Assembly (NCBI GenBank): GCA_963810935.1 | Contig: CAWEPK010000008.1 | Span: 224,001-288,000 of the forward strand | DNA length: 64,000 bases | Source of the DNA: an uncultured delta proteobacterium | GTDB lineage: Bacteria; Desulfobacterota; Syntrophorhabdia; Syntrophorhabdales; WCHB1-27 | Direction of reading: 5' to 3' | Part shown: piece by piece, positions 23,275 through 45,051 of the stretch | Layout of the letters: every line of letters starts with the position of its first letter | Numbering within the stretch: position 1 is the stretch's first letter | Made by a program: the position numbers and the translations under genes | Notes under the pieces: generated by a model | What the model was told of the DNA's origin: nothing | Database searches by the model: none | The model's input: the letters and a program-made list of their open reading frames with translations, nothing else

Positions 23275-25377
23275 TCACGCCTCCTTAAGGTCGACTCGAA
23301 GGAACCCGAACTCGTCCGTCCGCACCAGCGCATTCTCGCCCACAATGAGAGTCGATTCCCTCTCCTCGATGATGGCCGGGCCCCGGAAAAGAGCGCCGGG
23401 GAAGAGCTTGTAACGGTCATAAACGGTGTGGGGGATGAAGTCATTGGCGACCGGCGAGTACGCCTTGCGCGTGCCCTTGATCGCAGCTTCAAGGTGCTGG
23501 CCTTTCTTCTTTGTCAGCTTCGGCAGTTGCAGCAGCTTCTCCGGCAGCACTGCCCTCACCTTGAAGTTGATGAACTCGATCTCGGAGTCGGGATACGTCC
23601 TGCCGTACAGCTTCTCGTAAACCTGGTCGAAGAGCCGGCGCACCTCGGCCCTCTGCATATCGGGGAAAGGCTTTGCGGGGATGGGCACATTGGTCTCCGC
23701 GCCCTGGCCGACAAAGCGCATATCGAGCGACCTCTCGAAGCGGATCGACGCGCCCGGGCCGTCCTTTTGCAGCGTAGCGGCGGCTTCCCCTTCCAACGCT
23801 TTGAAAATAGCCTCTATCTCCTCGAACTTTGCTTCGGCGAGCGCAACCTTGTGGCTCCTCAGCAGGTCGAACGCGCGGGGCGCGGTGAAAAAGCCGAGCG
23901 CGGAGCCGACGCCCGCGTTCGGTGGGACCAGCAGGCGCGGCGCTCCCAGCTTTTGAGCCAGGCCATACGCGTGCACCGGGCCCGCGCCGCCGAAGGCAGC
24001 GATGGTCACTATCTTCGGGTTGCCGCCCTTCTCCGCGATGTGCGTCTTTGCGGCGGCTGCCATCGTCTCGTTTATGACGTCGTGAATACCCCAGACGGCC
24101 TTCACGTACGAAACCTCGAGGGGCCCGGCTATGCGCTCCATTACGGCGCGCCTGGCAGCCTCCTTGTCGAGCTTCATCTCGCCGCCGAGGAAATAATTCT
24201 CGTCGAGGTAGCCGAGCAGAAGGTCTGCGTCCGTGACGCACGGATCGACGCCGCCCCTGCCGTAGCAGACGGGTCCGGGGTCCGCGCTGGAGCTTTCCGG
24301 CCCCACCTGGAGCGTCCCCATTTTGCTCACTTTCGCGATGCTCCCGCCGCCCGCGCCTATCTCCATGAGGTCTACGACCGGCACCTGTATCGTGAGGCCG
24401 CTCCCCTTCATGAAACGCTGCACGCGGCCCACCTCGAACGTCGGCACAACGCCTGCGACGCCTTTCTGTATCAGGCATGACTTCGCGGTCGTGCCGCCCA
24501 TGTCGAAGCAGAACATCTCAGGGATATCGAAGTGCTTCCCGTAATACTGGCCCGCTATAACCGCAGCCGTGGGCCCTGACTCGATGATGCGGACCGGGAA
24601 CCGGGCGGCCGTCTCGACGGACGTGACGCCGCCGGAAGAGAGCATTATGAAGAGCTTCCCACGGAAGCCGATCGATTCCAGCTTGCCCTGGAGCTTTGAC
24701 AGGTACTTGCCGGTCAGCGGCTTGACGTAGGCGTTCGTGACCGTGGTGCTCGTCCTCTCGTATTCCTTTATCTGCGGAAGGACTTCGTAGGAGATCGATA
24801 TCGGGACGCCGGGCATCTCCTCTTCGAGGATCCGCTTGAGAGTCAGCTCGTGGGCGGGGTTCTCGAAGGAATTGAGCAGGCAGACGGCAACCGATTCTAT
24901 GCCGAGGGCAGGCAAGGATTTTACCAGGCGTCTCGCCTCCTGGACCTTCATCGCCTTGAGCACGGTGCCGTCGCTGCGCACTCTTTCGTCCACCTCGAAG
25001 CGGAACCTCCTCGGTATCAGCGGCTCCGGGAACTCCGCGAAGATGTCATAAGGGGCATAGCGTATCTCACGGCCGATCTCCAGCACGTCCCGAAAGCCCT
25101 TCGTCGTAATAAGGGCCGTCCTGGCGCCTTTCCGTTCGATTATGGAGTTGATGACGAGCGTGGTGCCGTGGATAAGCTCGTTGAGCTTCGGCACGAAGCC
25201 GGCGACGTCTTTCTCCAATGTCCTTATGCCCTGCTCCACCGCGTCCGACGGGTCCCTCGGCGTCGTAAGGCATTTGCTCGTCCTTATCTCGCCGGTTTCG
25301 TCGTCCAGAAGGACGAAGTCCGTGAACGTCCCGCCGATATCGCAGCCCAGCCGGTAATGCTTATCATCCTTCTTCAC
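23275..25377 (-). CDS. Hydantoinase A/oxoprolinase family subunit (ATP-binding)
   Basis: DIGGTFTD, HGTT, EYERTSTT, ESGP, DMGGTT, IGAGGGSIA, GPVCYGRGG. Confidence 0.94.
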   Translation of the reverse strand: MKKDDKHYRLGCDIGGTFTDFVLLDDETGEIRTSKCLTTPRDPSDAVEQGIRTLEKDVAGFVPKLNELIHGTTLVINSIIERKGARTALITTKGFRDVLEIGREIRYAPYDIFAEFPEPLIPRRFRFEVDERVRSDGTVLKAMKVQEARRLVKSLPALGIESVAVCLLNSFENPAHELTLKRILEEEMPGVPISISYEVLPQIKEYERTSTTVTNAYVKPLTGKYLSKLQGKLESIGFRGKLFIMLSSGGVTSVETAARFPVRIIESGPTAAVIAGQYYGKHFDIPEMFCFDMGGTTAKSCLIQKGVAGVVPTFEVGRVQRFMKGSGLTIQVPVVDLMEIGAGGGSIAKVSKMGTLQVGPESSSADPGPVCYGRGGVDPCVTDADLLLGYLDENYFLGGEMKLDKEAARRAVMERIAGPLEVSYVKAVWGIHDVINETMAAAAKTHIAEKGGNPKIVTIAAFGGAGPVHAYGLAQKLGAPRLLVPPNAGVGSALGFFTAPRAFDLLRSHKVALAEAKFEEIEAIFKALEGEAAATLQKDGPGASIRFERSLDMRFVGQGAETNVPIPAKPFPDMQRAEVRRLFDQVYEKLYGRTYPDSEIEFINFKVRAVLPEKLLQLPKLTKKKGQHLEAAIKGTRKAYSPVANDFIPHTVYDRYKLFPGALFRGPAIIEERESTLIVGENALVRTDEFGFLRVDLKEA

Positions 25378-27680
25378 GCCGCTCCCCCTTCCTTTTCTTT
25401 TGCCTTAAGCGCAGCGAGCACTTTTTCCGGGGTTATGGGCAGGTCCCTTATCCTCACGCCTATCGCGTCGTACACGGCGTTCGCGATTGCCGGCGCAGTC
25501 GGCACCAGGCCCGGCTCGCCTATACCTTTCGCCCCGAACGGACCATCCTTCTCGTCCGTCTCGACTATGACCGCCTGCATGGGCGGTATGTCCCTCGCCG
25601 TAAGGATCTTGTAATCCAGGTAATTCGGGTTCATCAGCCTGCCGTCTTTGTAGACCATCTTCTCCGAAAGGGCGTAGCCGAGGCCCATAGCGCCGCCTCC
25701 CGATATCTGCCCTTCGAGGAGCATCGGGTTGAGGGCCTTGCCGACGTCGTGGGCTGCCACGTAATTGATGACCTTGACCCTGCCCGTCTCCTTGTCGACC
25801 TCGACCTCGACGCCGTGCGCGCCATAGGCGTAGGTGACGGAGAGGTTCCCTTTAAGCTCCCGGTCGAGGCACTCGTTCGGCGGGTCGTAAAAATATTCCG
25901 CCATGAGCATCTTGCCGCCCGACATGTAGTGCGCGTTCCGCAGGATTTTGGCTAGGGAGATGTTCTTTTCTTTATTGTGTCTCGCGTAAATGAGGCCGGG
26001 CGCCAGCTCCAGCCCCGACGGGTCTTCGTTCAACGCCTCGGCGGCCGCTTCAAGGATCTGCTGCTTGATCTTCATAGCCGCGCCCAGCGCCGAGTTGCCG
26101 CCGACGAACGTGGTACGGCTCGCATGGACGCCCACGTCCCATGGGCAAACGTCCGTATCATTGTTGATCACGTTCACGTCGTCCGTCGAGATGCCGAGCA
26201 CCTCCGCGACGATCTGGGCGATGATCGTGTCCGACCCCTGGCCTATGTCCGACGAGCCGGTGAAGACGTCCACCTTGCAGTAGTCGTCCATCTTGATGAT
26301 CGTGCCGCACCCGTCTGACTTGTAGACCCTCGCTCCCCCGCCGACGTGGATGAGGGTGGCCATGCCGAAACCTCTTCCTTCCTTGGCCTTGCGCTTCCCG
26401 CTCCAGCCCAGCCTGCTTTTGACCTCCGACATGCATTCCTTCATGCCGCAGGTGGTGATCTTCAGCTTCTGGGGCGTAAACTCTCCGGGCTCGTTCGCGT
26501 TCTTCAGCCTGAAATCGTAAGGTTCAATCCCCGCCTTCTCCGCAAGCTCTTCGAGGGAAGACTCGATGGCGAACGTTGCCTGGGGGTTGCCGTAACCTCT
26601 CATGGCCTGGCTATACGTATTGTTCGTATAAACACACTTGGCGATATATTTGATGTTCGGCACTTTATATAGCGAGGAGATGGGCATCATCATGACCGAC
26701 GGCGTCGTCGCCCCCCATGACGTATAGGCCCCGTTGTCGAGGATCATCTCCATGTCCCTGAAGAGTAGCTTTCCTTCTTTGGTGCAACCTTGCGAGATGC
26801 GGGTGATCGTGGGCTGCCTGGGCGACGTAGCCAGGAACTCCTCTTCCCGCGTGAAGACGATCTTAACCGGCCGCCTGGCAGCCATGGCCAGTAGTATCGC
26901 GATATATTCATAAGCGTAGGTGTCCAGCTTGCTCCCGAAACCACCTCCTATGGTGGTCTGGATGACCCTGACCCGCTTGCCTTTCAGGCCGAAGACGCCG
27001 AGCGCCTCCATGAAATCCTTCTGCGCCAGGGATGGTATCTGCGTGTTGCTGTACATCGTAAGGTTCTTAGTAGAGTCGAACTGGGCGATGCACCCGCTGG
27101 TGCCCATGCAGCAGTGGGTAACCCATTGCGTGCTGTACGAGCCTTCCACTATGAAGGCCGCCTCTTTCTTCGCCGCCTCAACGTCGCCGGAAACCAGCCG
27201 CCAGGGCAGGTTGAGGATATTGGTGGGCTTCTTCTCTTTGCCGCCCAGGTGGTCTTCGTGTATCAGGGGCGCGCCTTCTTTCATCGCCTCAAGAGGGTCG
27301 AAGACGGCAGGCAGCTCCTCGTACTCGACCTCGATCAGGTCGAGGGCGTCTTCGGCAATCTCCGGGTCCGTCGCGGCGACCGCGGCAATCTCATCCCTCA
27401 GAGAACAGACCTTGTCCTTCTTGAGCGGCGGGTTGTCCTTATAGACGCCCATCTTGAAAGGCGGGACCGAGGCGCCCGTGATGACCGCTTTCACGCCCGG
27501 AAGATTCTCCGCCCGGGAAGTATCTATGCGTTTTATACGCGCGTGGGGATAACGACTGTATAATATCTTTCCGTAGAGCATTCCGGGCAGTGCCAGGTCC
27601 TGGATGTAGGAGGCCTCACCCGTCACTTTGGCCGGCGCGTCCTTCTTGGATATCCTTTTTCCTACGGCAGTCAGCTCCAT
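25374..27680 (-). CDS. Xanthine-dehydrogenase-family molybdopterin-binding subunit
   Basis: KVTGEA, GGGFGSK, AMRGYGNPQ, DIGQGS, ASRTT, AKGIGEP (catalytic Glu retained). Confidence 0.93.
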   Translation of the reverse strand: MELTAVGKRISKKDAPAKVTGEASYIQDLALPGMLYGKILYSRYPHARIKRIDTSRAENLPGVKAVITGASVPPFKMGVYKDNPPLKKDKVCSLRDEIAAVAATDPEIAEDALDLIEVEYEELPAVFDPLEAMKEGAPLIHEDHLGGKEKKPTNILNLPWRLVSGDVEAAKKEAAFIVEGSYSTQWVTHCCMGTSGCIAQFDSTKNLTMYSNTQIPSLAQKDFMEALGVFGLKGKRVRVIQTTIGGGFGSKLDTYAYEYIAILLAMAARRPVKIVFTREEEFLATSPRQPTITRISQGCTKEGKLLFRDMEMILDNGAYTSWGATTPSVMMMPISSLYKVPNIKYIAKCVYTNNTYSQAMRGYGNPQATFAIESSLEELAEKAGIEPYDFRLKNANEPGEFTPQKLKITTCGMKECMSEVKSRLGWSGKRKAKEGRGFGMATLIHVGGGARVYKSDGCGTIIKMDDYCKVDVFTGSSDIGQGSDTIIAQIVAEVLGISTDDVNVINNDTDVCPWDVGVHASRTTFVGGNSALGAAMKIKQQILEAAAEALNEDPSGLELAPGLIYARHNKEKNISLAKILRNAHYMSGGKMLMAEYFYDPPNECLDRELKGNLSVTYAYGAHGVEVEVDKETGRVKVINYVAAHDVGKALNPMLLEGQISGGGAMGLGYALSEKMVYKDGRLMNPNYLDYKILTARDIPPMQAVIVETDEKDGPFGAKGIGEPGLVPTAPAIANAVYDAIGVRIRDLPITPEKVLAALKAKEKEGGAA

Positions 27681-28147
27681 CATCCACCTCCCACGGCGGA
27701 CTTAATGGCCTCAATAATTTGAACGTACCCCGTACATCTGCACAGATTGCCTTCTATGCCCTCCTTGATCTCATCATCGGTAGGCCGGACATTCTCATCC
27801 AGCAAGGCATAAGCAGACATGATCATCCCTGGCGAGCAGAAGCCGCACTGAACGGCCCCGTGCTCGATGAAGGCTACCTGGAGCGGATGGAGGCTGCCGT
27901 CTTTCGCCGTCAGGCCCTCGATGGTCTTCACGCTGCACCCTCCCGCCTCTATCGCGGGGAAAAGGCAGGAATTGACCGCTTTCCCATCGACGATCACCGT
28001 ACAGGCCCCGCATTCACCATGGCCGCACCCTTCCTTCGTCCCTTTAAGACCCATAACCTCCCGCAATAGATAGAGGAGGGTCCAGTGGGGTTCCACCTCC
28101 GTCCCGACGGTCTCGCCGTTCAGAACAAATGAAATTTCTTTCTTCAT
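27680..28147 (-). CDS. Xanthine-dehydrogenase-family [2Fe-2S] subunit
   Basis: GTKEGCGHGECGACTV, QCGFCSPG, GNLCRCTGY. Confidence 0.95.
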   Translation of the reverse strand: MKKEISFVLNGETVGTEVEPHWTLLYLLREVMGLKGTKEGCGHGECGACTVIVDGKAVNSCLFPAIEAGGCSVKTIEGLTAKDGSLHPLQVAFIEHGAVQCGFCSPGMIMSAYALLDENVRPTDDEIKEGIEGNLCRCTGYVQIIEAIKSAVGGG

Positions 28148-28157
28148 CCTTTCACCC

Positions 28158-29120
28158 TTACCAGAGCCTGTCAGGATAAACCATCTCGTCCGGCCGCAAG
28201 ACCCGGTCGAGGGACTTCATGATCGCTCTCCGCACTAGGACTTCCACCAGTTCCCTGCGATACCACGCGTCTCCCCGTACGTCGTCTATCGGCGACGATT
28301 CGGATGCCGCGACCTGCGCCGCGGCGGCAACGGCCTCGTCGGAGAGAACGCGGCCCTTGAGCATATCTTCAGCTTTTCTCGCCCTCAGAGGACGGGGCGC
28401 AACTGCGGCCATTGCTATGCGTATGTCCTTGCAGCGCACCTCCTCGTCACCGAAATGGGAGAGTATCTCGGAGGCAGGCGCCATGCTGCATAGCATGTCC
28501 TTGCAGCGAACGTCCGTCCTGTCCAGGGTGAGCCGCACGGCGACGGCTGCGATGGGCAGGTCCACGGCGTTTCTCCTCGCCTGCCTTATATACGCCGACC
28601 CTGTATAGTCGTCTGTCTCCGGCACACGCAGCTCTTTAAGGATCTCGCCCCTCTTCAGCACTGTCATGCCCGGTCCCAGGAAAAAATCATCGAGGCTTAC
28701 GCGCCGCTCGCCTTCGGGTCCCACTATGACCCCTTCCGCGTCCAACACGAGAAGCGGGCAGGCAGTGTCGGCCGAAGGCGCGGCATTGCAGATATTGCCT
28801 CCGATGGTAGCCACGTTCCTTATCTGCGTCGACCCTACGTTGCACACAGCGTCGTGGAGGGCCGAGAGGCGCTTCTGAGCGTGCTCGTTCTTTTGGATCT
28901 CCCTGTGAGTCACGCAGGCGCCGATGGAAAGCCCGTTCAGCACGGACAACTCCTTTATGCTCCTGAGCGACGTCAGCGCCTTCACGGAAAGTCTCTTCTG
29001 CCTGAGGAGCACCATCACGTCAGTGCCGCCCGCTATGTATGCAGCGTCGCCGCTGAATCGCCCCATTAGATCGAGCGCCTCCGAAATGGAAGCGGGTTTA
29101 AAATACTCGAACCGAAGCAT
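28158..29120 (-). CDS. Xanthine-dehydrogenase-family FAD-binding subunit (CoxM-like)
   Basis: IAGGTD, QIRNVATIGGNICNAAPSAD, PIDDVRG..YR. Confidence 0.93.
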   Translation of the reverse strand: MLRFEYFKPASISEALDLMGRFSGDAAYIAGGTDVMVLLRQKRLSVKALTSLRSIKELSVLNGLSIGACVTHREIQKNEHAQKRLSALHDAVCNVGSTQIRNVATIGGNICNAAPSADTACPLLVLDAEGVIVGPEGERRVSLDDFFLGPGMTVLKRGEILKELRVPETDDYTGSAYIRQARRNAVDLPIAAVAVRLTLDRTDVRCKDMLCSMAPASEILSHFGDEEVRCKDIRIAMAAVAPRPLRARKAEDMLKGRVLSDEAVAAAAQVAASESSPIDDVRGDAWYRRELVEVLVRRAIMKSLDRVLRPDEMVYPDRLW

Positions 29121-29183: not shown

Positions 29184-30476
29184 CTAATCCTCTCTAGTGT
29201 CGAATACCCTCTTAGTCTTTCTTTCGGACCTCGGAAGCTCGCCGTAGCCGCAGATCTCGCACTCGCAGCTCACCATGATCTGCTTCTTGACCAGCGCCTC
29301 GACCGCTTTCTTGCATGCGGCGTCTCCGCCGGGAGAGGCGCCTTTTCCCCTCTCGACCTTGATGGTCATGTAATCCTTTCCGTCGCCGGCCCTCTTCAGG
29401 TGCACCTGAAATTCGCTGCCTATGCCGGGGATGCCCGAAAGCACGTGGTCGATCTGGCCGGGATAAACGTTGACGGCCCTTATGATGAACATATCGTCCG
29501 AGCGGCCCAGGAAGCGGTCGTGCCTCGGCAGGATCGAGCCGCAGGGACAGGTCCCCGGTATGGCCCTCGTCAGGTCCCTCGTCCTGTACCTGATCAGGGG
29601 CGCGGCCTCTTTCCGCAGGGTGGTGACGACGAGCTCGCCGATTTCGCCTTCCGGCACCGGCTCCAGTGTCTCAGGGTCGAGGAACTCCGCTATGTAGTAG
29701 TCGGCCCAGTAGTGAATGCCCGTGTGATGGACGCAATCGAGGCCCGTGCCCGGACCGTAAAGCTCGGTCATCCCTGGGATGTCGAATATATCCTGTACGC
29801 CGAGCATTTCCCTGATCTTCGCCCGCATTGAGTCGCTCGACCGCTCCGAGCCGAAAATGACTTTCTTGAGGTTGATCTTATCCTTGATGCCCCTCTTCTC
29901 GACCTCTTCCGCCATGAGCAGACCCATAGACGCGGTGCAGCAGAGCACGGTGGTCTTGAAATCGACGAGGAACTCGCATTGCAGGTCGATGTTCCCCGGT
30001 CCTATGGGTATCGCCATCGCTCCGAAGCGCTCGCACCCTGCCTGGAACCCGACCCCGGCCGTCCACACGCCGTAACCGACGGCGATCTGCACGCTGTCCG
30101 CCGCAGTCAGCCCGGCCATCTCATAGCAGCGCGCAAAAAAATTGGCCCAGTCATCGATGTCGCGCGCAGTATAGGCAAGCACCTTGCGCTTACCCGTAGT
30201 GCCCGAGGACGCGTGTATCCTGACAACGTCCTCCATCGGAACGGAAAGGAGCGGGAAAGGATACCCCGCCTTGAGGTCGTTGGCCGTAGTAAAAGGCAAG
30301 CGCTTCAAGTCGTCCAGCGTCTTGATCTGCTCCGGCCTGACACCGGCGTCCTCTAATTTTTTCCTGTAAAACGGAGACCCCTTAAATGCGTGCTGCACCG
30401 TCCACTTCAAGCCCTCAAGCTGAAAGGCGAGCAACTCCTTCTCGGTCTTCTGAACCGGCATGAATGTCTTTCCCAT
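29184..30476 (-). CDS. Phenylacetate-CoA-ligase (PaaK) family aryl/acyl-CoA ligase
   Basis: RIHASSGTTGK, GYGVWTAG, GMTELYGPG, PLIRYRTRD, GRSDDM. Start taken at MGKTF after GAGGGG. Confidence 0.9.
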   Translation of the reverse strand: MGKTFMPVQKTEKELLAFQLEGLKWTVQHAFKGSPFYRKKLEDAGVRPEQIKTLDDLKRLPFTTANDLKAGYPFPLLSVPMEDVVRIHASSGTTGKRKVLAYTARDIDDWANFFARCYEMAGLTAADSVQIAVGYGVWTAGVGFQAGCERFGAMAIPIGPGNIDLQCEFLVDFKTTVLCCTASMGLLMAEEVEKRGIKDKINLKKVIFGSERSSDSMRAKIREMLGVQDIFDIPGMTELYGPGTGLDCVHHTGIHYWADYYIAEFLDPETLEPVPEGEIGELVVTTLRKEAAPLIRYRTRDLTRAIPGTCPCGSILPRHDRFLGRSDDMFIIRAVNVYPGQIDHVLSGIPGIGSEFQVHLKRAGDGKDYMTIKVERGKGASPGGDAACKKAVEALVKKQIMVSCECEICGYGELPRSERKTKRVFDTRED

Positions 30477-30516
30477 GATAACTCCCCTCCACGAGAAATT
30501 GACCGGACGGGTTTTT

Positions 30517-32145
30517 CTAAAACAGGCTCGGCTCGTCGAACTCGCCGAAAATGTTGCGAAAAACACCCGTCATTTCACCAACCGTTGCGTAGGCCTTGCA
30601 GCACTCCACGAGGAAAGGCATGACGTTCTTCCCTTCCTTTGTGGCCTTTTCCAGATCACCGAGCGTCTTCGCGACGTCCCGGCTGCTCCTGCCGCGCCTG
30701 ACCTCTTTCAGGTCCTCTATCTGCTTGTTCGCCGACTCCGTATTGTATTCATGCAGCTCAACGTCCTGTGATTCTCCTTCCGTGTGGATGTTGACTCCGA
30801 CCTTTAGAAGCTCTCCGGACTGGATGCCCTTCTCGAAGTCGTATGCCTGCGCAGCCACGAGCCTCTGGATGTAACCCGTTGCGACCGCCTGCACGATGCC
30901 CCCCACTTTCTCTATGCTGGCCATCTCTTCTTCGATCTTTTGCTCCATCTCTTTCGTCAGCGTCTCGATGAAGTAGCTGCCTGCGAGCGGGTCCACCGTA
31001 TCGCGCAGCCCTATCTCGTCCATCAGAAGCTGGAGCGTGCGCAGCGAGATGATGGCCGAATGGGGCGTGGGAATGGTGTAAGCCTCGTCATAGCTGCAAA
31101 GGGCGATAGTCTGTGCGCCCGACAGGGCCGCGGCCAGGGCGTAATAGGCGCCCCGCATGATGTTGTTCTCGGGCTGCGCCTTCGTGAGGCCGTAACCCCC
31201 GCCCCCGAAGAGGCCCCGGAGATACATGTTCGAATCTTTCTTTACGCCGTATTTCTCTTTCAGGTTCCTTGCCCACATTTTCCTCGCCGCCCTGAACTTC
31301 GCCACCTGCTCCCACAGGTTGCCGAAGACGTTCAGGTTGAAGGAGAAGCGGCCGACGAAATCGTCCGCCTCGTACCCCCTCGCCAGCACGTTATCAATGT
31401 AGGCGTTCGCGATCAGGACGGCGCACGCGATCTCCTGCGCGGGCGTAGCCCCGGATTCCCTGATATGGTATCCGCACACGCTCACCGGGTTAGTCCTGGG
31501 CAGGACGTTCATCGAGTACTCGATGGTGTCGCCGATCAGCTTGACTGCGGGCTCCACGGGGAAAATCCACGAGCCCCTGCCGATCATCTCCTTCAATATG
31601 TCGTTCTGCGGCGTGGCGGAGATAACGGCCGGGCTGTAACCGAACTTCTCGGCGACCGCCTGGTACATGGCAAGCATGATCGAGGCGACCGCATTTATCG
31701 TGAGGCCGGACCCGATGCGCGCAAGGTCGATCTGGTTGAAGGCTACCTCGAAGTCACGGAGCGAATCGACCGCCATGCCCACGCGGCCCACCTCGCCCTC
31801 GGACATAGGGTCGTCCGAGTCGTAGCCCATCTGCGTGGGGAGGTCGAAGGCCACGTTGAGCCCCGTCTGCCCGTGCGAGATCATCAGCTTGAACCGCTCG
31901 TTCGTCTCGGCTGGCGTGCCGAAACCCGTATACTGGCGCGTCGTCCAGGCCCTGCTCCTGAAGCCCTGCGGGTGGATGCCCCGCGTGAACGGATACCGGC
32001 CGGGGTCGGCCAGGTCTTTTTCATATGAAAAACCTATCCGCTCCAGGTCTTCGGGACCGTAAACCGGCTTAACGTGGATACCCGACTGGAGCGTCACGTC
32101 CGTTATCTGGTCCTTCCCGTCCTTTGTGTATTTTGCAACTCCCAT
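30517..32145 (-). CDS. B12-dependent acyl-CoA mutase, large (substrate-binding) subunit; divergent from MCM
   Basis: PGRYPFTRG, RQYTGFG, VAFDLPTQMGYDSD, QNDILKE, GYHIRE, DPLAGSY. Confidence 0.92.
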   Translation of the reverse strand: MGVAKYTKDGKDQITDVTLQSGIHVKPVYGPEDLERIGFSYEKDLADPGRYPFTRGIHPQGFRSRAWTTRQYTGFGTPAETNERFKLMISHGQTGLNVAFDLPTQMGYDSDDPMSEGEVGRVGMAVDSLRDFEVAFNQIDLARIGSGLTINAVASIMLAMYQAVAEKFGYSPAVISATPQNDILKEMIGRGSWIFPVEPAVKLIGDTIEYSMNVLPRTNPVSVCGYHIRESGATPAQEIACAVLIANAYIDNVLARGYEADDFVGRFSFNLNVFGNLWEQVAKFRAARKMWARNLKEKYGVKKDSNMYLRGLFGGGGYGLTKAQPENNIMRGAYYALAAALSGAQTIALCSYDEAYTIPTPHSAIISLRTLQLLMDEIGLRDTVDPLAGSYFIETLTKEMEQKIEEEMASIEKVGGIVQAVATGYIQRLVAAQAYDFEKGIQSGELLKVGVNIHTEGESQDVELHEYNTESANKQIEDLKEVRRGRSSRDVAKTLGDLEKATKEGKNVMPFLVECCKAYATVGEMTGVFRNIFGEFDEPSLF

Positions 32146-32159
32146 CTCGCCTCCTTAAT

Positions 32160-32222
32160 GGGGCTTGCGTCGCCCCCTCCACGAGCAAAGCTCGTAGAGC
32201 CTCCCCTTCATAAAAAGGAAGA
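32160..32222 (-). repeat. 63-bp double-hairpin intergenic element (family B, copy 1)
   Basis: 54/63 identical to 36887-36949, with compensatory changes in the stem. Confidence 0.85.
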
Positions 32223-32233
32223 GGCAACACATC

Positions 32234-32656
32234 CTAACCCCGCTTCGCGTTGTCGCGGATAAACTCCACGATTTCGGAAAAACGGGTGCCGCCCGGAAAG
32301 ACGCCGGAAACGCCGAGGCCTTTTAGCCGCCCGATGTCGAGGTTGGGTATCACGCCCCCGACAAGGACCATCTTGTCGCCTATCCCCTCTTTGTCCACCG
32401 CTTTCATGAGCTTTTGCACGATGGGGATATGGGCGCCGCTCATGATCGAGAGGCCGATAACGTCCACGTCCTCCTGGATCGCTATCCTCACGATCTGATC
32501 GACGGTCCTGTGCAGGCCCGTATAAACTACCTCCATGCCCGCTTCCTTGAGGGCCAGGGCAACCACCCTTGCGCCCCTGTCGTGCCCGTCCAGTCCCGGC
32601 TTGGCAATCAATACCTTAATGGGTTTCTTGCTCTCCAACTTCCCCTCCCGCAGCAC
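32234..32656 (-). CDS. Cobalamin-binding small subunit of acyl-CoA mutase
   Basis: KPGLDGHDRG (DxHxxG), IQEDVDVIGLS, VGGVIP. Start codon uncertain. Confidence 0.93.
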   Translation of the reverse strand: MLREGKLESKKPIKVLIAKPGLDGHDRGARVVALALKEAGMEVVYTGLHRTVDQIVRIAIQEDVDVIGLSIMSGAHIPIVQKLMKAVDKEGIGDKMVLVGGVIPNLDIGRLKGLGVSGVFPGGTRFSEIVEFIRDNAKRG

Positions 32657-33449: not shown

Positions 33450-33728
33450 CTATCCGCAGCGATACTGGACGCCGCATTCTCCTCTGGGATATTCCCAGGT
33501 AATGGCTTTGTGCACACAGGCGATCTTGCACGTGCCGCACTCCAGGCATCCTGCGTATTCGACGACTATCTCCTGCGTATCCTCGTTCACCGAATAGAGA
33601 TGGCCCGGGCAGATGCGGATGCAATACCTCTCCTTGCACCGGGCGCAAATCTCCTTATCCAGCTTGATATGGCTCTCTTTGTCGTTTTTGATGGCGTCGA
33701 GCGCCAGCTTCTCTTCAACCTTCATCAC
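33450..33728 (-). CDS. fixX: FixX-type ferredoxin
   Basis: CARC...CIRICP, GCLECGTCKIAC, WEYPRG..GVQY. Follows fixC. Confidence 0.9.
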   Translation of the reverse strand: MMKVEEKLALDAIKNDKESHIKLDKEICARCKERYCIRICPGHLYSVNEDTQEIVVEYAGCLECGTCKIACVHKAITWEYPRGECGVQYRCG

Positions 33729-35020
33729 ATCCGCCTCAGTGCCAGAAAGTCTTTGAACCCCTGAAACGCGCTGATATACCGTTTGTTTACCGCCTTGGCT
33801 GTCTTGTAAAGGGACCCCTTCGGCCCCTCCCCTATAGTAAAGAGCTCCTCGAACAGCTCGCAGAGGAACCGCGGGTAGACGCTTAAGAACCGTGGGTTTT
33901 CCAGTACCTCACCGGAATGGCGGAACGTCTCCATATCTTTGAGGACGAAGCTCTCCTTCAATTTCTGCTCATAGACCGAAAGCGCCCCGGCCGAGAAGTC
34001 ACCCTTCGACAGCGCCTCATCCGCAGCCTCTGCGGCGATGACGCCGGAGGCCACCGCGAAATCCATGCCCCTCACCGTAAGCCCCATATTGAGGGCCAGG
34101 CCCGCGGCGTCCCCCGCAATGAGCATCCCGCCCGTGTAAAGCTTCGTCAGGCCGCCGTACCCCGCCTCGGAGATGATATGGGCCGAATATTCCTTAAGCT
34201 CGCCGCCTTTAAGGAAGCGCGCTACTTCCGGTCTTGCCGTAAAGCCGTCGATCAGGCGGTGCATCTCGGCATCGCCCGCATTTTTCAGAAAAGAGCCTAT
34301 CCCTACGACGATGCCGGCGGAGATGCTCTCCCTGTTCGTGTAGAGAAATCCCCCGCCGAACATGCCTTTGGTAACCGACCCCGCGTAAAGGCCGGCCGCG
34401 CCCTCGCCCTCTTCGAGGCCGAAACGCTCCTCGATCCTGCCGGGCTCGAGCTTGTATACCTCTTTGATCGCTACGGCGTAATCGGCAGGCTCGAGGTCTT
34501 TCCGCAGGCCCGCCTTTTCCGCCATGAAGGAAAGCGCCCCGTCCGCGGCGATCACTATATTCGCCGGTATCTCCTCGTCGCCGATCCTGACGCCTGCTAC
34601 GCGGCCGTCCTCGAAGAGCAGCCCGTCCACCTTCCGCTTCGGGATGACGAACCCTCCCTTCTCCATGACCTTCTCGGAAAGCCAGTTGTCGAAGGTCGCG
34701 CGAAGGACCGTGTAGCTCATGTACGGCGGTTTCTTCCATTTGTCGTTTGTGTGCTCGACCTGCACGGACGCGCCCTCGTCGAGGAGCGTCACTATCTCCC
34801 TGACGACCGGCCGCTCGAAAGGCGCTTCTTTGAGGATCGCGGGGATATACTTGCGCAACGGCGCTACGTAAATCCTGCCTCCTGTAACGTTCTTGCTCCC
34901 GCACGTATCGCCCCGTTCCAGGAGTATGACCTGTCTGCCTGCTTCAAGCAGGCGGTAGGCGGCGCAAAGACCCGCAAGCCCTCCGCCGACGATCACCACA
35001 TCCATTTTATCTTCAGACAT
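33725..35020 (-). CDS. fixC: FixC-type flavoprotein (ETF:quinone oxidoreductase-like)
   Basis: VGGGLAG, ERG...GSKNVTGG, GGGFLYTN, EYSAHII, GDAAG, RGMDFA. Confidence 0.9.
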   Translation of the reverse strand: MSEDKMDVVIVGGGLAGLCAAYRLLEAGRQVILLERGDTCGSKNVTGGRIYVAPLRKYIPAILKEAPFERPVVREIVTLLDEGASVQVEHTNDKWKKPPYMSYTVLRATFDNWLSEKVMEKGGFVIPKRKVDGLLFEDGRVAGVRIGDEEIPANIVIAADGALSFMAEKAGLRKDLEPADYAVAIKEVYKLEPGRIEERFGLEEGEGAAGLYAGSVTKGMFGGGFLYTNRESISAGIVVGIGSFLKNAGDAEMHRLIDGFTARPEVARFLKGGELKEYSAHIISEAGYGGLTKLYTGGMLIAGDAAGLALNMGLTVRGMDFAVASGVIAAEAADEALSKGDFSAGALSVYEQKLKESFVLKDMETFRHSGEVLENPRFLSVYPRFLCELFEELFTIGEGPKGSLYKTAKAVNKRYISAFQGFKDFLALRRM

Positions 35021-35022: not shown

Positions 35023-36000
35023 TTATCCGCCGGTCCTCTTTTTAAGCTCCGCGGTCATCGCAGGCACTACATCGAACAAGTCTCCCACGATCCCGTAATT
35101 GGCATACTGGAAGATGATGGCGTTCGGGTCCCTGTTTACGGCAAGGACCAGCTTCGACGTATCCATGCCCATTATATGATGGATTGCGCCCGATATGCCG
35201 ATAGCAATGTACAGCTTGGGCGATACGGTCTTGCCGCTCTTGCCCACCTGGTCTTCCACGTCGCGCCAGCCCGCGTCGACGACCGACCTCGTCGCGCCGA
35301 CCGTCCCCCCGAGCACAGCCGCAAGCTCCTCGATAAGGGCAAAGTTTTCGGGGGCCTTCAGACCCCTGCCGCCTGACACTATCGTATCGGCCTCGGTGAG
35401 ATCGACCTTGCCCGCCTGCTTCTGCTCAACCCGAAGCACCTTCGTGTGCATCGCACTTGCGTCGAGCCCTGCCTGTTTCTCTATGAGGGTGCCCGCTCCA
35501 CCGGCGGCCTCAGCGACCGGGAACGTGTTCGGCCTGGTGGTCACGATAACGGGATAGGCGGCAGGTGAGACTTCCGTGAGCACCTTGCCGCCGTAAATGG
35601 GCCGCACGAAGCTCATCGGGTCTGTGTCCCATGCTGCGGCCGTTACGTCGGACACTATGCCGCAGCCGAGGAGCACTGCGACCCTCGGCAGGAAATCGCG
35701 CCCTGTCTGCGTCGCGCCCGCAACTATTATTTTAGGGTTGGCTTCCTTGGCATAACCTGCAAAGGCTGCCGCATAAGCTTCCGGCGTGTATGACTCAAGC
35801 AGGGGGTCGTCGATATGGACGAGCGTCTCCGTTAATGCGAGCAGCTTTTCTGCAAGCTTTCCGGAAAGTGGGCCCAGCACTGCGGCCTCGACCTTAAACC
35901 GGCCGGATTGCGCAAGCCGGCGGCCCTCGCTCAAAACCTCCAGGGAAGCCTTTTTTGCCTCGTCGCCCTTAGTCTCCACAAATACAAGGATAGTCTCCAT
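35023..36000 (-). CDS. etfA: Electron transfer flavoprotein alpha subunit
   Basis: VSGGRGL, GATRSVVDAGW, QVGKSGKTVSPKLYIAIGISGAIHH. Confidence 0.94.
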   Translation of the reverse strand: METILVFVETKGDEAKKASLEVLSEGRRLAQSGRFKVEAAVLGPLSGKLAEKLLALTETLVHIDDPLLESYTPEAYAAAFAGYAKEANPKIIVAGATQTGRDFLPRVAVLLGCGIVSDVTAAAWDTDPMSFVRPIYGGKVLTEVSPAAYPVIVTTRPNTFPVAEAAGGAGTLIEKQAGLDASAMHTKVLRVEQKQAGKVDLTEADTIVSGGRGLKAPENFALIEELAAVLGGTVGATRSVVDAGWRDVEDQVGKSGKTVSPKLYIAIGISGAIHHIMGMDTSKLVLAVNRDPNAIIFQYANYGIVGDLFDVVPAMTAELKKRTGG

Positions 36001-36008: not shown

Positions 36009-36791
36009 CTAAATGACCCGTTCTACGTCGGCGAGGATCTTTACCGCCTCTGCCGCGGCCTCTGCCGCTTCCCCGCCTATGATCTTAACGGGCGGCCTTT
36101 TCTTCGGGGCAAGGTAGCGTTTTACCCGCACCTTCGACCCGGCGAGGCCCACCGCATCGCTCTCCAGCCCCAGGTCTTCCGGCCCTATCTTCGGTATCTG
36201 GGCCTTCATCGCCTTCATGACACCCGTGATCGGCGCTACGCGCGGCTGGTTCAGACCTTTCTGTACGGTAATGACTGCGGGCAGGGAAACCTCGATGACT
36301 TCCCTCCCGCTTTCCGTGAGCGATTCTGCAACCGCCTTCCCTTCGCCGATATCGAGCTTCACGACTGCGCCGACGTGAGGGAGCCCCAGGAACTGCGCGA
36401 CCATGGGCCCGACCTCGCCCCTGTCGTCGTCAACGGCCTGCCTGCCGCACAATACGATGTCGTACGGCTCCTTCGCCACCGCTTTCGAGAGGGCCAGCGC
36501 GGTCGAATAGCCGTCGCCGTCGAGGAAAGCCGCGTTCTCCAGGAGCAGGGCGGCGTCCGCCCCCATGGCAATGCCGGTCCTGAGCACCTCCGTCGCCTTG
36601 CCTGCGCCCAGGGTTATGACCAGCACGCGCCCGCCGAGGCGCTCTCTTATCCGCAGGGCCTCTTCGAGGGCGAACTCGTCGAATATGCTCGTAGCGAACT
36701 TCTGCTCGATCTCGAGCTTTGCACCGTCGCCCTTTATCTCTATGGCCGCTTCCGCGTCGGGCACCTGCTTTGCCAGAACGACTACATTCAT
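36009..36791 (-). CDS. etfB: Electron transfer flavoprotein beta subunit
   Basis: KQVPD, FDEFALEEAL, AMGAD, CGRQAVDDD, LNQPR. Confidence 0.94.
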   Translation of the reverse strand: MNVVVLAKQVPDAEAAIEIKGDGAKLEIEQKFATSIFDEFALEEALRIRERLGGRVLVITLGAGKATEVLRTGIAMGADAALLLENAAFLDGDGYSTALALSKAVAKEPYDIVLCGRQAVDDDRGEVGPMVAQFLGLPHVGAVVKLDIGEGKAVAESLTESGREVIEVSLPAVITVQKGLNQPRVAPITGVMKAMKAQIPKIGPEDLGLESDAVGLAGSKVRVKRYLAPKKRPPVKIIGGEAAEAAAEAVKILADVERVI

Positions 36792-36956: not shown

Positions 36957-38105
36957 TCACGACTTGCCTATAATCAGCCTGCCCAGGAAGTCCTTGATAA
37001 TCTCGTGCGTCCCGCCGCCGTACAGCAGGAACCGGGCGTCCCTGAAGTGGCGCTGGGGGTCGTACTCGCGGGCGAAACCGTTGGCGCCCCAGATGCGCGT
37101 TACCTCATCGACCACCTTGCAGCACGTTTCCGTGGCAAACATCTTGGCCATGGCTGCTTCCTTGCGGCTGGACAGCTTTTCCTTTATACGCCATGCCGCG
37201 CTGTAGACCAACAACCTGCTCGCCTCCATCTCGGTAGCCATATCGGCGAACTTGGCCCTGATGAGCTGATAGCTGCCGATGGGCTTCCCGAAGGCGACGC
37301 GCTTCCTTGCGTATTCGAGTCCCTCGTCGTAGGCCGCCTGGGCGATACCGATCGCCATCGCGCCCGTCATGGTCCGTACCTCGTCGAGGATCTCGCCCAG
37401 GTACTCGACCCCTTTGTTGATCTCCTCGCCCAACAGGTTCTCTTCCGGCACCCTCACGTTGTCGAAAACCAGCTCGCCCGTGATCGTGCCCCTGCACCCG
37501 AGCTTATCGATCACCTGTCCTGCTGCAAACCCCGGCGTCCCTTTCTCGACGAGGAAGAAGTTGAGTCCCTTGTTCCCCAGCTTGACGTCCGTAGTCGCGA
37601 GGACCGTAGCCATGTCTGCGATAGGGCCGTTCGTGATCCACATTTTGGTACCGTTAATCACCCATTCATTTCCCTCTTTGACAGCCGTAGTCCGCGTTGC
37701 CGCGAGGTCGGACCCCGACTGGTCCTCGGTGAAGCACATGGTGGCCACCTTCTCGCCCCGCATTGCCGGATACAGGCAGCGTTCTTTGATTGCGTCGGAG
37801 CCGAAGCGGTAAATGAAATAGGTGCCCATCAGGATATTCATGATTGCGCTCTGGGCGAAGCCGACCGATGCGCGCGCTATCTGCTCGTAAAAGATCATAG
37901 CGGTGACAGGGTCCGCGTTCATGCCCCCTATCTCTTCGGGATAGCGCAGGCCCAGGTAGCCGAGCTTCCCGAACTCACGCCACAGCTCCATGGGGAACTC
38001 GTCTTTCTCGTCGATCTCCCGCGCCTTCGGCACGATCATACGGTCGACCGTATCGGTGACCATCTTTTTGAAAAATTCCTGCTCTTCGGTCAGCCTGAAG
38101 TCCAT
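36957..38105 (-). CDS. Acyl-CoA dehydrogenase family protein, atypical catalytic site
   Basis: MDFRLTEEQ, FTEDQSGSD, NGTKMWITNG, KLGCRG, RVAFGKPI, RDAR, YGGGTHEI. Confidence 0.93.
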   Translation of the reverse strand: MDFRLTEEQEFFKKMVTDTVDRMIVPKAREIDEKDEFPMELWREFGKLGYLGLRYPEEIGGMNADPVTAMIFYEQIARASVGFAQSAIMNILMGTYFIYRFGSDAIKERCLYPAMRGEKVATMCFTEDQSGSDLAATRTTAVKEGNEWVINGTKMWITNGPIADMATVLATTDVKLGNKGLNFFLVEKGTPGFAAGQVIDKLGCRGTITGELVFDNVRVPEENLLGEEINKGVEYLGEILDEVRTMTGAMAIGIAQAAYDEGLEYARKRVAFGKPIGSYQLIRAKFADMATEMEASRLLVYSAAWRIKEKLSSRKEAAMAKMFATETCCKVVDEVTRIWGANGFAREYDPQRHFRDARFLLYGGGTHEIIKDFLGRLIIGKS

Positions 38106-38217: not shown

Positions 38218-39168
38218 CTATTTTTCTATCCTGAACACGACCTTTTCGACAATGCTCTCGACCGCGCCGTAAGGGTCCCGCTTCCTCTCGACGGCCTCCC
38301 CGGCTATCTCCATGCAGACCTTATCGTCCCGGACCGCCGCGCCTGCACGCTGCCAGACCTCTTCCTTTAGAAGGTCCATAGTGAAGGCGGCAGTCCTCTC
38401 CTCTCTGCGCTTCTTTCTCCGTCCTTCTTCCGCGAGGAAGCGCCAGTGCCTGTCGATTTCACCCGCAAGGTCTGTAATGCCCTCGCCCCGGTCTGCCCGC
38501 GTGCTCATTACCGGGGGCAGCCAGCCGTCCGAGCCTGCGGCCAGTATGGAGGCGATGGTGGCTTTCGCACTCTCCGCCCCCGCGATATCGGTCTTATTGA
38601 CTACGATAATATCGCCAACCTCCAGAAGACCCGCCTTCAACAATTGGACCTCGTCGCCGTACTCAGGCGTAAAAAGGACGATCATCGTATCGCACAGGTA
38701 AGAAAGGGCCTTCTCGCCCTGCCCGGCCCCCATGCTTTCAACCAGGACTCTCTCCTTACCCAGGGCCTCCAGGACATATACCGCACCTGCCGCTGCCCTC
38801 GCAAGTCCGCCGGGGTAACCCCTGTGCGCCATCGACCTTATAAAAACGCCCAGTTTCTCCGCGCCTTTCATCCGTAGCCGGTCGGCCAGGAGCGCGCCTG
38901 CGCCCGCAATGCTCGTGGGGTCAACCGCTACGACACCCACCCTCTTTCCCTGCCCGGCGAAAGCCACGGCCAGTCCGCCCGTTACGGTGCTCTTACCCGC
39001 ACCGGGCGGCCCTGTGATGCCTATTATATGGGCCCTGCCCGTATGGCCGAAGAGACGGGAGAGCTCAACGTAACCCTCCCTCGACCCGTTCTCGATCAGC
39101 GTGATGAGACGGGCGGCGCTTTTTTCATCGCCCGCTATTATCTTCTCTGCGAGCCCTGACACAGCCAA
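38218..39168 (-). CDS. meaB: MeaB/ArgK GTPase chaperone of B12 mutases
   Basis: ARLITLIEN, GPPGAGKST, VDPTS, DRLRM, FIRSM, VNKTD. Confidence 0.9.
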   Translation of the reverse strand: MAVSGLAEKIIAGDEKSAARLITLIENGSREGYVELSRLFGHTGRAHIIGITGPPGAGKSTVTGGLAVAFAGQGKRVGVVAVDPTSIAGAGALLADRLRMKGAEKLGVFIRSMAHRGYPGGLARAAAGAVYVLEALGKERVLVESMGAGQGEKALSYLCDTMIVLFTPEYGDEVQLLKAGLLEVGDIIVVNKTDIAGAESAKATIASILAAGSDGWLPPVMSTRADRGEGITDLAGEIDRHWRFLAEEGRRKKRREERTAAFTMDLLKEEVWQRAGAAVRDDKVCMEIAGEAVERKRDPYGAVESIVEKVVFRIEK

Positions 39169-39181: not shown

Positions 39182-40372
39182 TCAGATGACCTCTTTATTT
39201 TTCATCTCTTTGATCTGTTCATCGGAATATCCCAGCACCTTCCCGTAAATCTCAGCGTTATGCTCACCGAACCTCGGCGGGAACGACATTGTCCGGCTGT
39301 TCTCTGTGAGGAACGCGGTCATGTGCGGCGGCGGCGCCATCCATATCTTCGTGCCGGTCACAGGGTCCGTGGCGGTGAGCATCGACTTCGAAACCAGCGT
39401 GTCCTCCATGACGTCTTTTATCGTGTTGACCCTCGATATGGGAATGGTCGCCTTGTTGAAAACCTCGATTATATCGTCGGTGGTACGGGTGCGCGTACAA
39501 CTGTTTATCTGCTCGTTCAGGCTTATTACGTCCGCGATCCTGCCCTTGTTCTTCTCGTATTCGGGCCGCGCCAGCTTCTCGAAGCCCGGTAATTGCGTGA
39601 AGGAAACCCACTGGCGGTCGTTCCCTACCGCTATGTAGACGTATCCGTCTTTCGTTTCGTAGACTGAAACGGGGGAAAAGAACTCGTGCGTATTGCCTCT
39701 GCGCGTCACCTTCGTGCCGAAGGACTTGGCTAGGCCCAAGGCCACCGTGAGCCAGGACGTGGTGGACATGAACATCGAAACGTCGATCCTCTCGCCCTCT
39801 CCTGTCAGCGCCCGCTTGCAAAGCGCCTTCATAATCAGGCCGTAACCGTGCTCGCTCGTCCCCATGTCCGGAAGCGGGATACCGAGGACCTGCGGGTCCC
39901 CGCCCGCATTCCCCGTAAGCTCCATCAGGCCCCCTCTCGCCTGGAGGATGGGATCGTAAGCCGCCTCGTTGCTTTCCGGCCCGAAGCCCGTGAGGCCCAT
40001 CCAGATGAGGTCCGGCTTGACCGCTTTGAGCGATTCGTAGTCTACGCCGAGCTTTTCGTAGTTGCGCGGGAGCTGGTTCGTCGCGAAGATATCGACGTTC
40101 ATCTTCACGATCATTTCCTTGAGCAGCTTCCGCCCTTCCGGCGATCCCAGGTTGAGGGTAACGGCTTTCTTTCCCGCGTTTATCGTAAGGAAATAAGCGT
40201 TCATCTTCTCTTCGCCGAGCCTGTTATCGCCGATCTGCCGGTTCGGGTCACCGAATACCGGGTGCTCCAGCCTGATAACACGCATGCCGTCCATTGCGAG
40301 CCTGTAGCTCAGATATGGCAATACGGTGGCCTGCTCCAGCGAGAGCATCGTCATATTCCTGAAAACGTCCAT
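39182..40372 (-). CDS. Class III CoA-transferase (CaiB/BaiF family)
   Basis: GDPNR, NAGKKAVTLNL, AYDPILQARGGLM, PLPD (catalytic Asp region), YETKDG, PRFGEHN. Confidence 0.92.
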   Translation of the reverse strand: MDVFRNMTMLSLEQATVLPYLSYRLAMDGMRVIRLEHPVFGDPNRQIGDNRLGEEKMNAYFLTINAGKKAVTLNLGSPEGRKLLKEMIVKMNVDIFATNQLPRNYEKLGVDYESLKAVKPDLIWMGLTGFGPESNEAAYDPILQARGGLMELTGNAGGDPQVLGIPLPDMGTSEHGYGLIMKALCKRALTGEGERIDVSMFMSTTSWLTVALGLAKSFGTKVTRRGNTHEFFSPVSVYETKDGYVYIAVGNDRQWVSFTQLPGFEKLARPEYEKNKGRIADVISLNEQINSCTRTRTTDDIIEVFNKATIPISRVNTIKDVMEDTLVSKSMLTATDPVTGTKIWMAPPPHMTAFLTENSRTMSFPPRFGEHNAEIYGKVLGYSDEQIKEMKNKEVI

Positions 40373-42231: not shown

Positions 42232-42238
42232 CGAAATT

Positions 42239-44959: not shown

Positions 44960-45051
44960 AACCGGCAAAGAGAAGCCGGATACGAAAGGGTCGTCGGGCC
45001 TTCCTTTTTGGGCCGCCATGACCGGTTAATAAAATATAGGGGGTAATTATA

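Follow-up and report, generated by a model that had tools for sequence, protein, structure and literature searches.

We studied an acyl-CoA dehydrogenase (ACAD) gene in a 64,000-nt stretch of DNA, hereafter the window, from contig CAWEPK010000008.1 of an uncultured delta proteobacterium of the Syntrophorhabdales. Coordinates are positions within this window, and (-) and (+) indicate the strand within it. The gene is located between a MeaB/family III CoA-transferase gene pair and a B12-dependent mutase, inside a co-directional minus-strand array of the iaa (indoleacetate) type, and genes for an electron-transfer flavoprotein (Etf) and for FixC- and FixX-like proteins follow directly behind it. 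The gene and the two sites of its product that correspond to known catalytic positions are:

36957..38105 (-): IaaF-type ACAD, putative decarboxylating (2-aminobenzyl)malonyl-CoA dehydrogenase; 382 aa, begins MDFRL
37011..37019 (-): GGG replacing the YEG catalytic motif; residues 363-365, translation checked
37374..37388 (-): LDEVR; Val243 is at the Glu position of the isovaleryl-CoA dehydrogenase (IVD) type, with Glu242 one residue before

The open reading frame (ORF) has an alternative start, a TTG at 38111, two codons upstream. An identical 382-aa protein is present in the public protein collection (P0001). The three-domain, FAD-dependent ACAD fold was recovered by Pfam, which recognised the N-terminal, middle and C-terminal ACAD domains with E-values of 1e-27 to 1e-44, and by the AlphaFold2 (AF2) model of the protein (pLDDT 97.2). 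Foldseek aligned this model to short-chain (SCAD) and medium-chain (MCAD) acyl-CoA dehydrogenases and IVD with TM scores of 0.95-0.96, as expected of a standard ACAD. In the model, residues 242-243 are located on a long helix (232-268), and the GGG is found in a loop (360-366) flanked by two helices.

According to Schuhle et al. 2021 (PMC8360864), the catalytic residue of ACADs is the Glu of the YEG motif. We compared the catalytic positions by HMMER pairwise alignment of the window protein with solved ACADs from the PDB. The stretch 'darfllygggtheiik' aligned with DAKITEIYEGTSEVQR of 5ol2_C and with DAKVTQIYEGTNEI of 5lnx_A. 5ol2_C is the butyryl-CoA dehydrogenase of Clostridium difficile, whose '..ITEIYEGTSEV' faces the segment RFLLYGGGTHEI of the window protein, as does the corresponding segment of Bacillus subtilis MmgC (5lnx_A). 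In both alignments the YEG Glu pairs with the middle glycine of the GGG, such that Gly364 occupies the place of the C-terminal Glu of MCAD- and SCAD-type enzymes. At the second position, 'ILDEVRTM' pairs with 'GLDYERVV' of the isovaleryl-CoA dehydrogenases 4o5m_A and 4kto_A. The helix-G Glu that serves as base in enzymes of the IVD type and the long-chain (LCAD) type therefore corresponds to Val243, and the Tyr that precedes it in IVD corresponds to Glu242. A reading made earlier from the sequence alone (the sequence-only reading) had noted LLYGGGTHEI in place of IYEGTxEI and, on helix G, LDEVR in place of LDxER with a Glu one residue earlier. Its alignment had been done by eye and proved right in both places. 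Its conclusion that Glu is absent from both canonical catalytic positions is confirmed by direct reading of the sequence, so that chance is not at issue, and the pair of motifs was retained in every close relative examined.

The absence of both acids sets the window protein apart from its better known relatives. Isovaleryl-CoA dehydrogenases (1ivh, 4o5m, 4kto), which are about 34-38% identical to it (Foldseek TM 0.93-0.95), also have a small residue for the YEG Glu, as their motif reads GAG. They compensate, however, with the Glu of helix G (LDYER), where the window protein has Val. PMC8360864 names one other decarboxylating ACAD, glutaryl-CoA dehydrogenase, and describes it as keeping YEG, deprotonating C2 and then decarboxylating the gamma-carboxyl in a second step, whereas the window protein lacks the YEG Glu.

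We aligned 200 ACADs, comprising the window protein, the 370-400-aa ACADs of related loci, and single-domain representatives of 330-420 aa. An acid was present at the YEG position in 115 of these sequences and at the IVD position instead in 30, leaving 55 with an acid at neither. Among these 55 base-less ACADs, 45 read GGG together with Glu-Val or Glu-Ile at residues 242-243. All 45, including the window protein, were placed in a single clade of 50 with a FastTree support of 0.98. The remaining five members of this clade were P0130 (VI, GGG), P0132 (DI, GAG), P0134 (EA, GAG), P0135 (ET, AGG) and P0143 (KS, ASG). The GGG was found in all 45 sequences of the clade set, in 233/233 close relatives and in 119/119 members of a more distant, proteobacterial branch around locus L066, which is 41-48% identical to the window protein (119 of the 120 listed proteins were analysed, one being too short). 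The L066 branch takes in proteins from Xanthobacteraceae, Hyphomicrobiales and metagenome-assembled genomes (MAGs) of Gammaproteobacteria. Three proteins related to the 50-member clade carry the automatic JGI annotation 'benzylmalonyl-CoA dehydrogenase', namely P0439, which is 62% identical to the window protein, and P0463 and P0566, which belong to the L066 branch.

The nearest genomic relatives are uncultured Syntrophorhabdales, Syntrophorhabdus and other 'Deltaproteobacteria' MAGs (98% identity for L001 and 85-91% for many others). The close clade is strongly conserved, with 85-91% identity across 119 proteins among the matches listed. Only one GGG-type ACAD is encoded in the window's genome, where the next best of eight ACAD matches is 38% identical. 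No protein named for Aromatoleum or Ferroglobus was among the matches listed in protein searches started from the window protein, from P0122 and from the L066 protein, in the search for representatives, or in cluster look-ups. In a tblastn search of a plasmid collection, the best match to the ACAD had 41% identity and all matches were IVD/AcdA-like.

Several residues distinguish the clade. Defined as residues present in at least 93% of the 45 clade members and in at most 12% of the 145 other ACADs, they include R54, M89, L92, M93, F97, T122, C124, F125, Y235, I239, E242, M246, T247, R337, F359, L361 and Y362, among others. The position of Arg337 is occupied by Gln in 124 of the 145 other ACADs. 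By their periodicity, residues 235, 239, 242 and 246 would lie along one side of a helix, which suggests that Glu242 is part of a specialised surface, perhaps lining a pocket for the aminobenzyl group.

Four genes of the array stand directly behind the ACAD gene:

36009..36791 (-): Etf small (beta/FixA-like) subunit; Pfam ETF; 165 bp downstream of the ACAD gene
35023..36000 (-): Etf large (alpha/FixB-like) subunit; Pfam ETF and ETF_alpha
33725..35020 (-): FixC-like FAD oxidoreductase of the ETF:quinone oxidoreductase type; Pfam FAD families, NCBIfam matches below cut-offs
33450..33728 (-): FixX-like ferredoxin; Pfam Fer4_ETF_QO at 28.2 bits, cut-off 24

Both Etf subunits were aligned with PDB entries, and the small subunit was overall closest to bifurcating Etfs (CarD, E = 1e-38). 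Three motifs identify group-2 bifurcating Etfs (PMC10734219): the small subunit has RxGV and GxxSPTxV, and the large subunit has RPxFGG. The small subunit of the window departs from both of its motifs, with QKFA for RxGV and GSKVRV for GxxSPTxV, and it reads DDDRGEVG where bifurcating Etfs have DGDTAQVG. The large subunit has a near match, RPIYGG for RPxFGG. Judged by these motifs, EtfBA is probably non-bifurcating, which agrees with the label given to such Etfs in the 2021 paper, cofactor content aside. The same four genes, for the two Etf subunits, FixC and FixX, make up the FixABCX/EtfABCX systems of Azotobacter and Thermotoga maritima (PMC10734219). Those systems, however, contain group-2 bifurcating Etfs that receive electrons from NADH, whereas the small subunit of the window lacks both motifs and the electron donor is presumably the ACAD. 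The Etf set of the window is one of several in its genome, which has four EtfA genes and two FixC-like genes.

Gene order was compared in 42 loci of the clade, of which 41 extend at least 900 bp and 31 at least 4.6 kb downstream of the ACAD gene. EtfB was found directly downstream of the ACAD gene in 32 of the 41 loci, and the complete order EtfB-EtfA-FixC-FixX in 22 of the 31. Locus L036 has EtfA-FixC-FixX, its EtfB having fallen outside the distance filter. In L002, L003, L005, L006, L013 and L031 the mutase gene follows directly after the ACAD gene, without Etf. Eleven loci of the Syntrophorhabdus type (L015, L016, L018-L026) have Etf genes behind the ACAD gene and no other iaa query genes in the locus. 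In the annotated loci L016 and L020 (e.g. L020:3814-14563), ACAD-EtfBA-FixCX stands after yqeY-mutS2-dnaG-rpoD. The two genomes of this kind that were searched (G004, G005) have a CoA-transferase-GntR-(MeaB)-mutase-hydantoinase-ligase-Mo-enzyme cluster elsewhere (L096, L097), without ACAD or Etf. The ACAD gene thus appears to stay with EtfBA-FixCX even when it is split from the rest of the pathway, and this is the strongest comparative argument that they form a functional pair. We also considered whether the stand-alone unit beside rpoD serves a pathway other than iaa, and rejected this because the iaa-type cluster located elsewhere in G004 and G005 is the part that lacks ACAD and Etf.

In some clusters without Etf, the IaaF gene has, immediately upstream and in tandem, the gene of a second ACAD, which shares 53-55% identity with the window protein. 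It was present in two of the three searched genomes in which the mutase gene directly follows the ACAD gene (G001:C1:5011861-5012979, L094; G003:C19:274367-275491, L095). A comparable ACAD in L036 (L036:2511-3825), with 55% identity, reads GGG and SEIR. The tandem paralogue may be either a partner subunit or a decarboxylating dehydrogenase in its own right.

The other genes of the array, and a second gene set that is divergent from it, are:

39182..40372 (-): family III CoA-transferase (IaaL-like); Pfam CoA_transf_3 256 bits, no NCBIfam equivalog cut-off reached
38218..39168 (-): MeaB-type mutase-associated GTPase; Pfam MeaB 243 bits
32728..33435 (-): GntR/FCD regulator; Pfam
30517..32656 (-): B12-dependent acyl-CoA mutase (IaaGH-like); large subunit 30517-32145, B12-binding small subunit 32234-32656
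29184..30566 (-): aryl-acetate CoA ligase (IaaB-like, PaaK family); Pfam; TIGR02155 405 bits, below the cut-off of 646
25374..29120 (-): molybdenum hydroxylase of the xanthine dehydrogenase (XDH) family; Pfam; no NCBIfam equivalog cut-off reached
23275..25377 (-): hydantoinase/oxoprolinase A; Pfam Hydantoinase_A
about 21549-23270 (-), start uncertain: hydantoinase/oxoprolinase B; Pfam Hydantoinase_B 494.7 bits
17953..20303 (-): indolepyruvate-type 2-oxoacid:ferredoxin oxidoreductase; Pfam; TIGR03336 128 bits, under the cut-off
40742-44522 (+): second XDH-type gene set, divergent from the array

Mutase, CoA-transferase and ligase, the proteins with which IaaF enzymes are co-encoded, are thus present as protein families, in the same direction and within 22 kb. 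The mutase scored 572.7 bits with Pfam MM_CoA_mutase and 83.8 bits with the B12-binding family, and its 528 bits with TIGR00641 were above the cut-off. The start of the ligase gene is uncertain, because its ORF overlaps the mutase gene. The molybdenum hydroxylase consists of a large subunit (25374-27683), a 2Fe-2S subunit (27680-28147) and an FAD subunit (28158-29120). A 2012 description of the iaa cluster reportedly includes a hydantoinase and a molybdenum enzyme as well. The indolepyruvate-type oxidoreductase comprises a thiamine pyrophosphate (TPP) subunit (17953-19716) and a gamma-type subunit (19713-20303), and it is adjoined by a 404-aa ORF (20300-21514 (-)) with a weak match to the IOR alpha subunit. 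This oxidoreductase, at the end of the array (17953-21514 (-)), would make indoleacetyl-CoA straight from indolepyruvate, and the cluster may therefore serve the breakdown of tryptophan as well as of free indoleacetate.

Further features were observed around these genes. The large subunit of the second XDH-type set (42239-44522 (+)) is split across two overlapping frames. The first, 42239-43870, matches MoCoBD_1 and the MoCoBD_2 profile at positions 8-96, and the second, 43641-44522, matches the latter profile at positions 94-283. Both parts are in one frame in L001, L013, L031, L029 and L034; hence there is a frameshift in the window near 43704-43727, which reflects either a broken gene or an assembly error. 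Candidate uptake systems for the aromatic acid flank the cluster at 15218-17937 (-), 46294-48087 (+) and 49831-52758 (-); they comprise two Peripla_BP_6-type periplasmic binding proteins and two sets of TRAP-transporter genes (DctQ/DctM and DctP/DctQ/DctM). Two ORFs, 44668-45873 (-) of 401 aa and 48393-49520 (+) of 375 aa, had no Pfam or NCBIfam match; relatives of the former, with 38-51% identity (87% in L001), have a similar place in many related iaa-type loci. A 383-aa ORF at 22137-23288 (+), also without a match, runs antisense inside the hydantoinase B gene and is unlikely to be a real gene. A sigma-70-like promoter match (38170-38141 (-); 10/12, extended -10 TG) is found 36 bp 5' of the ACAD start, in the 112 bp that separate the gene from meaB, and would be a possible internal promoter for the ACAD-Etf-FixCX unit. 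Like a similar match before the CoA-transferase gene (40557-40528 (-)), it agrees only with the consensus, and neither is evidence of function.

An enzyme with these properties has been characterised. Schuhle et al. described IaaF of Aromatoleum aromaticum as a benzylmalonyl-CoA dehydrogenase that acts with decarboxylation, encoded in the iaa operon alongside IaaB (ligase), IaaL (CoA-transferase) and IaaGH (mutase) (PMC8360864). In their account, all IaaF orthologues have GGG for YEG, and elimination of the C2 carboxyl is proposed to replace proton abstraction. The A. aromaticum enzyme showed good turnover of benzylmalonyl-CoA and weak activity with the C4-C6 alkylmalonyl-CoAs butyl-, 3-methylbutyl- and hexylmalonyl-CoA. 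Activity with methyl- and ethylmalonyl-CoA and with phenylpropionyl-CoA was not detectable. The iaaD gene of the same organism is reported as truncated and non-functional. A. aromaticum is a denitrifier with a single housekeeping ETF; neither this ETF nor artificial dyes were reduced by IaaF, O2 was the only acceptor found, and the physiological acceptor, the paper says, 'remains unknown'. The iaa operons of Desulfatiglans anilini, other sulfate reducers and Ferroglobus placidus contain a 'non-bifurcating ETF paralogue' beside the iaaF orthologue (PMC8360864, citing Schuhle et al. 2016), and the authors speculate that in strict anaerobes this paralogue is the dedicated acceptor of IaaF. The window agrees with these operons in its small subunit without the group-2 motifs. 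The window protein and A. aromaticum IaaF share the ACAD fold, the GGG for YEG, placement in an iaa-type cluster that includes B12 mutase and family III CoA-transferase genes, and the same proposed loss of the C2 carboxyl instead of a proton. They differ in their hosts, as that of the window is an uncultured Syntrophorhabdales-like anaerobe rather than a denitrifier, and in that the window gene has EtfBA-FixCX behind it, whereas the only ETF of A. aromaticum is its housekeeping one, not used by IaaF. Neither 'helix' nor 'FixC' occurs as a word in the text of PMC8360864; hence the check at the IVD position, the neighbouring Glu and the FixCX genes are not discussed there.

Taken together, the window gene probably codes for an IaaF orthologue with Etf-FixCX as its electron outlet, IaaF being the FAD-dependent benzylmalonyl-CoA dehydrogenase with which indoleacetate (auxin) is degraded anaerobically. 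Conversion of (2-aminophenyl)succinyl-CoA into (2-aminobenzyl)malonyl-CoA would be the task of the CoA-transferase and of the B12 mutase, assisted by its chaperone MeaB; the ACAD would then oxidise the product to 2-aminocinnamoyl-CoA. A hydride would pass from C3 to FAD while the C2 carboxyl departs as CO2, in place of a proton abstracted by Glu. This would explain why neither of the known positions holds a base (GGG in place of YEG, and Val where IVD has its Glu). The co-encoded and probably non-bifurcating EtfBA would re-oxidise the reduced flavin and pass the electrons via FixCX to the quinone pool. Coupling to decarboxylation should put the redox couple well below the approximately -10 mV of ordinary enoyl-CoA/acyl-CoA pairs. 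By textbook potentials, the lowered couple would make the reduction of menaquinone exergonic. The chemistry itself is known from measurements on the A. aromaticum enzyme.

The sequence-only reading had likewise proposed a decarboxylating dehydrogenase for the substituted malonyl-CoA made by the mutase, with a dedicated Etf-FixCX as acceptor. The GGG hallmark, the iaa-type cluster and the EtfB-EtfA-FixC-FixX genes directly behind the ACAD gene, kept in most relatives, make it the best-supported interpretation. Its statement that IaaF replaces deprotonation by decarboxylation matches the description in PMC8360864. We would specify the substrate as (2-aminobenzyl)malonyl-CoA rather than a generic alkylmalonyl-CoA. 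In essence, the proposal carries a model already published over to another genome, since the GGG rule, the mechanism and the dedicated ETF are already in print.

Several observations weigh against this interpretation. The only acceptor found for A. aromaticum IaaF was O2, so that an ETF is so far a proposed acceptor for any IaaF. No Etf was counted beside the ACAD gene in nine of the 41 clade loci. The FixC-like protein remained below the NCBIfam cut-offs (NF007450, 379.5 against 466 bits; NF007542 FixC, 348.6 against 610), as did the FixX-like ferredoxin (NCBIfam FixX, 59.8 bits, cut-off 166), so that both are related proteins and not equivalogs. The NCBIfam scan of the ACAD gave no model at its cut-off, and none of the models matched was an IaaF model; orthology to A. 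aromaticum IaaF is argued from the motif, the gene context and a clade with automatically assigned names. With two XDH-type sets and an indolepyruvate-type oxidoreductase in the cluster of the window, the growth substrate could be tryptophan-derived or another aryl-acetate instead of free indoleacetate. Finally, Glu242 is invariant in the close clade, and some role near the substrate is possible.

The first alternative concerns the electron acceptor: IaaF may be re-oxidised by another partner, with the neighbouring Etf-FixCX serving other dehydrogenases. This would account for the clade loci without Etf beside the ACAD gene and for the three further EtfA genes in the genome of the window, and A. 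aromaticum IaaF indeed failed to reduce an ETF. The ETF tested was, however, the housekeeping one of a denitrifier, and a dedicated ETF is proposed for strict anaerobes by the same authors (PMC8360864). Moreover, the order of ACAD with EtfBA-FixCX is kept even apart from all other iaa genes. We therefore regard a different acceptor as unlikely. A more specific form of the preferred interpretation is that IaaF-EtfB-EtfA-FixC-FixX is the physiological electron outlet, in which an IaaF-specific, non-bifurcating ETF feeds a FixCX-type quinone reductase, and that this module travels either inside or apart from the iaa cluster. We put this forward tentatively, as a proposition with nearly as much to be said for it as against it. 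In such a module Arg54 and Arg337, which are invariant in the clade and outside the active site, would mark the interface with the specific ETF or with FAD, and Glu242 together with Y235, I239 and M246 would shape the 2-aminobenzyl pocket rather than act as a base.

The second alternative retains the decarboxylating, GGG-type dehydrogenase and changes its substrate to another 2-carboxyacyl-CoA, such that the cluster degrades an aryl- or heteroaryl-substituted acid other than indoleacetate. The substrate is not readable from sequence, and the weak activity of A. aromaticum IaaF on butyl-, 3-methylbutyl- and hexylmalonyl-CoA (PMC8360864) leaves room for such a shift, as do the second XDH-type set (40742-44522), the indolepyruvate-type oxidoreductase, and the tandem paralogue, also with GGG, of some related genomes. 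Against it, the window contains every family that Fig. 1 of PMC8360864 names (ligase, mutase, CoA-transferase, ACAD and regulator) and, in addition, a hydantoinase and a molybdenum enzyme, as reportedly described for the iaa cluster in 2012, and the high identity within the close clade, given above for the matches listed, likewise speaks for the indoleacetate pathway. A different substrate thus seems quite improbable to us.

The third alternative is that the enzyme does not decarboxylate and is an ordinary acyl-CoA dehydrogenase, with Glu242 abstracting the alpha-proton. Its appeal is that Glu242 is conserved in 45/45 clade sequences of the 200-ACAD alignment and in 233/233 close relatives, consisting of 119/119 relatives of the window protein and 114/114 full-length relatives of P0122 (five of the 119 listed proteins, shorter than 360 aa, were left out), and that it belongs to the clade-specific helical stripe (Y235, I239, E242, M246) on the very helix that bears the IVD base. 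In the L066 branch, however, the residue is Glu in 110 of 119 members, Arg in six and Gln in three, although all 119 retain GGG and Arg337, and 118 retain Arg54. A Glu at this position is also found in 10 of the 115 ACADs whose canonical acid is in place, and is hence compatible with a base elsewhere. From these replacements and this co-occurrence, Glu242 is unlikely to be the base. Furthermore, the position is highly variable across the outgroup ACADs, with G, S and Y the commonest residues, and by helix geometry one step along the helix would rotate the side chain by about 100 degrees. The lack of detectable activity of the characterised IaaF on phenylpropionyl-CoA (PMC8360864) points the same way, provided that this enzyme carries the Glu. 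In our estimate an ordinary dehydrogenase using Glu242 is very unlikely.

Lastly, a non-redox enzyme of ACAD fold like 3-sulfinopropionyl-CoA desulfinase, whose family (AGG motif) is counted among the Glu-less ACADs in PMC8360864, is hardly credible, as the 231 bits obtained with the NCBIfam desulfinase model are far under its cut-off of 600, the motif is GGG and not AGG, and the context has a mutase and Etf, with no sulfur-compound genes seen in the Pfam scan of the window.

The core of the preferred interpretation, a decarboxylating IaaF-type dehydrogenase, is not new, as the enzyme family, the absent base and the decarboxylative mechanism have been published. What is added here is the negative evidence on the shifted Glu, a list of signature residues, and the observation that IaaF-EtfBA-FixCX behaves as a unit. 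The conserved Glu beside the IVD base position receives a first answer, namely that it is probably not catalytic, and the clade-specific residues provide targets for mutagenesis. The Etf-FixCX genes behind the ACAD gene, in the window and in about thirty related loci, are a testable candidate for the acceptor of IaaF in anaerobes. In a literature search joining Syntrophorhabdus with indoleacetate or auxin, none of the matches listed contained the word Syntrophorhabdus. With this assignment, the cluster extends anaerobic degradation of auxin or of the tryptophan side chain to the syntrophic Syntrophorhabdales.

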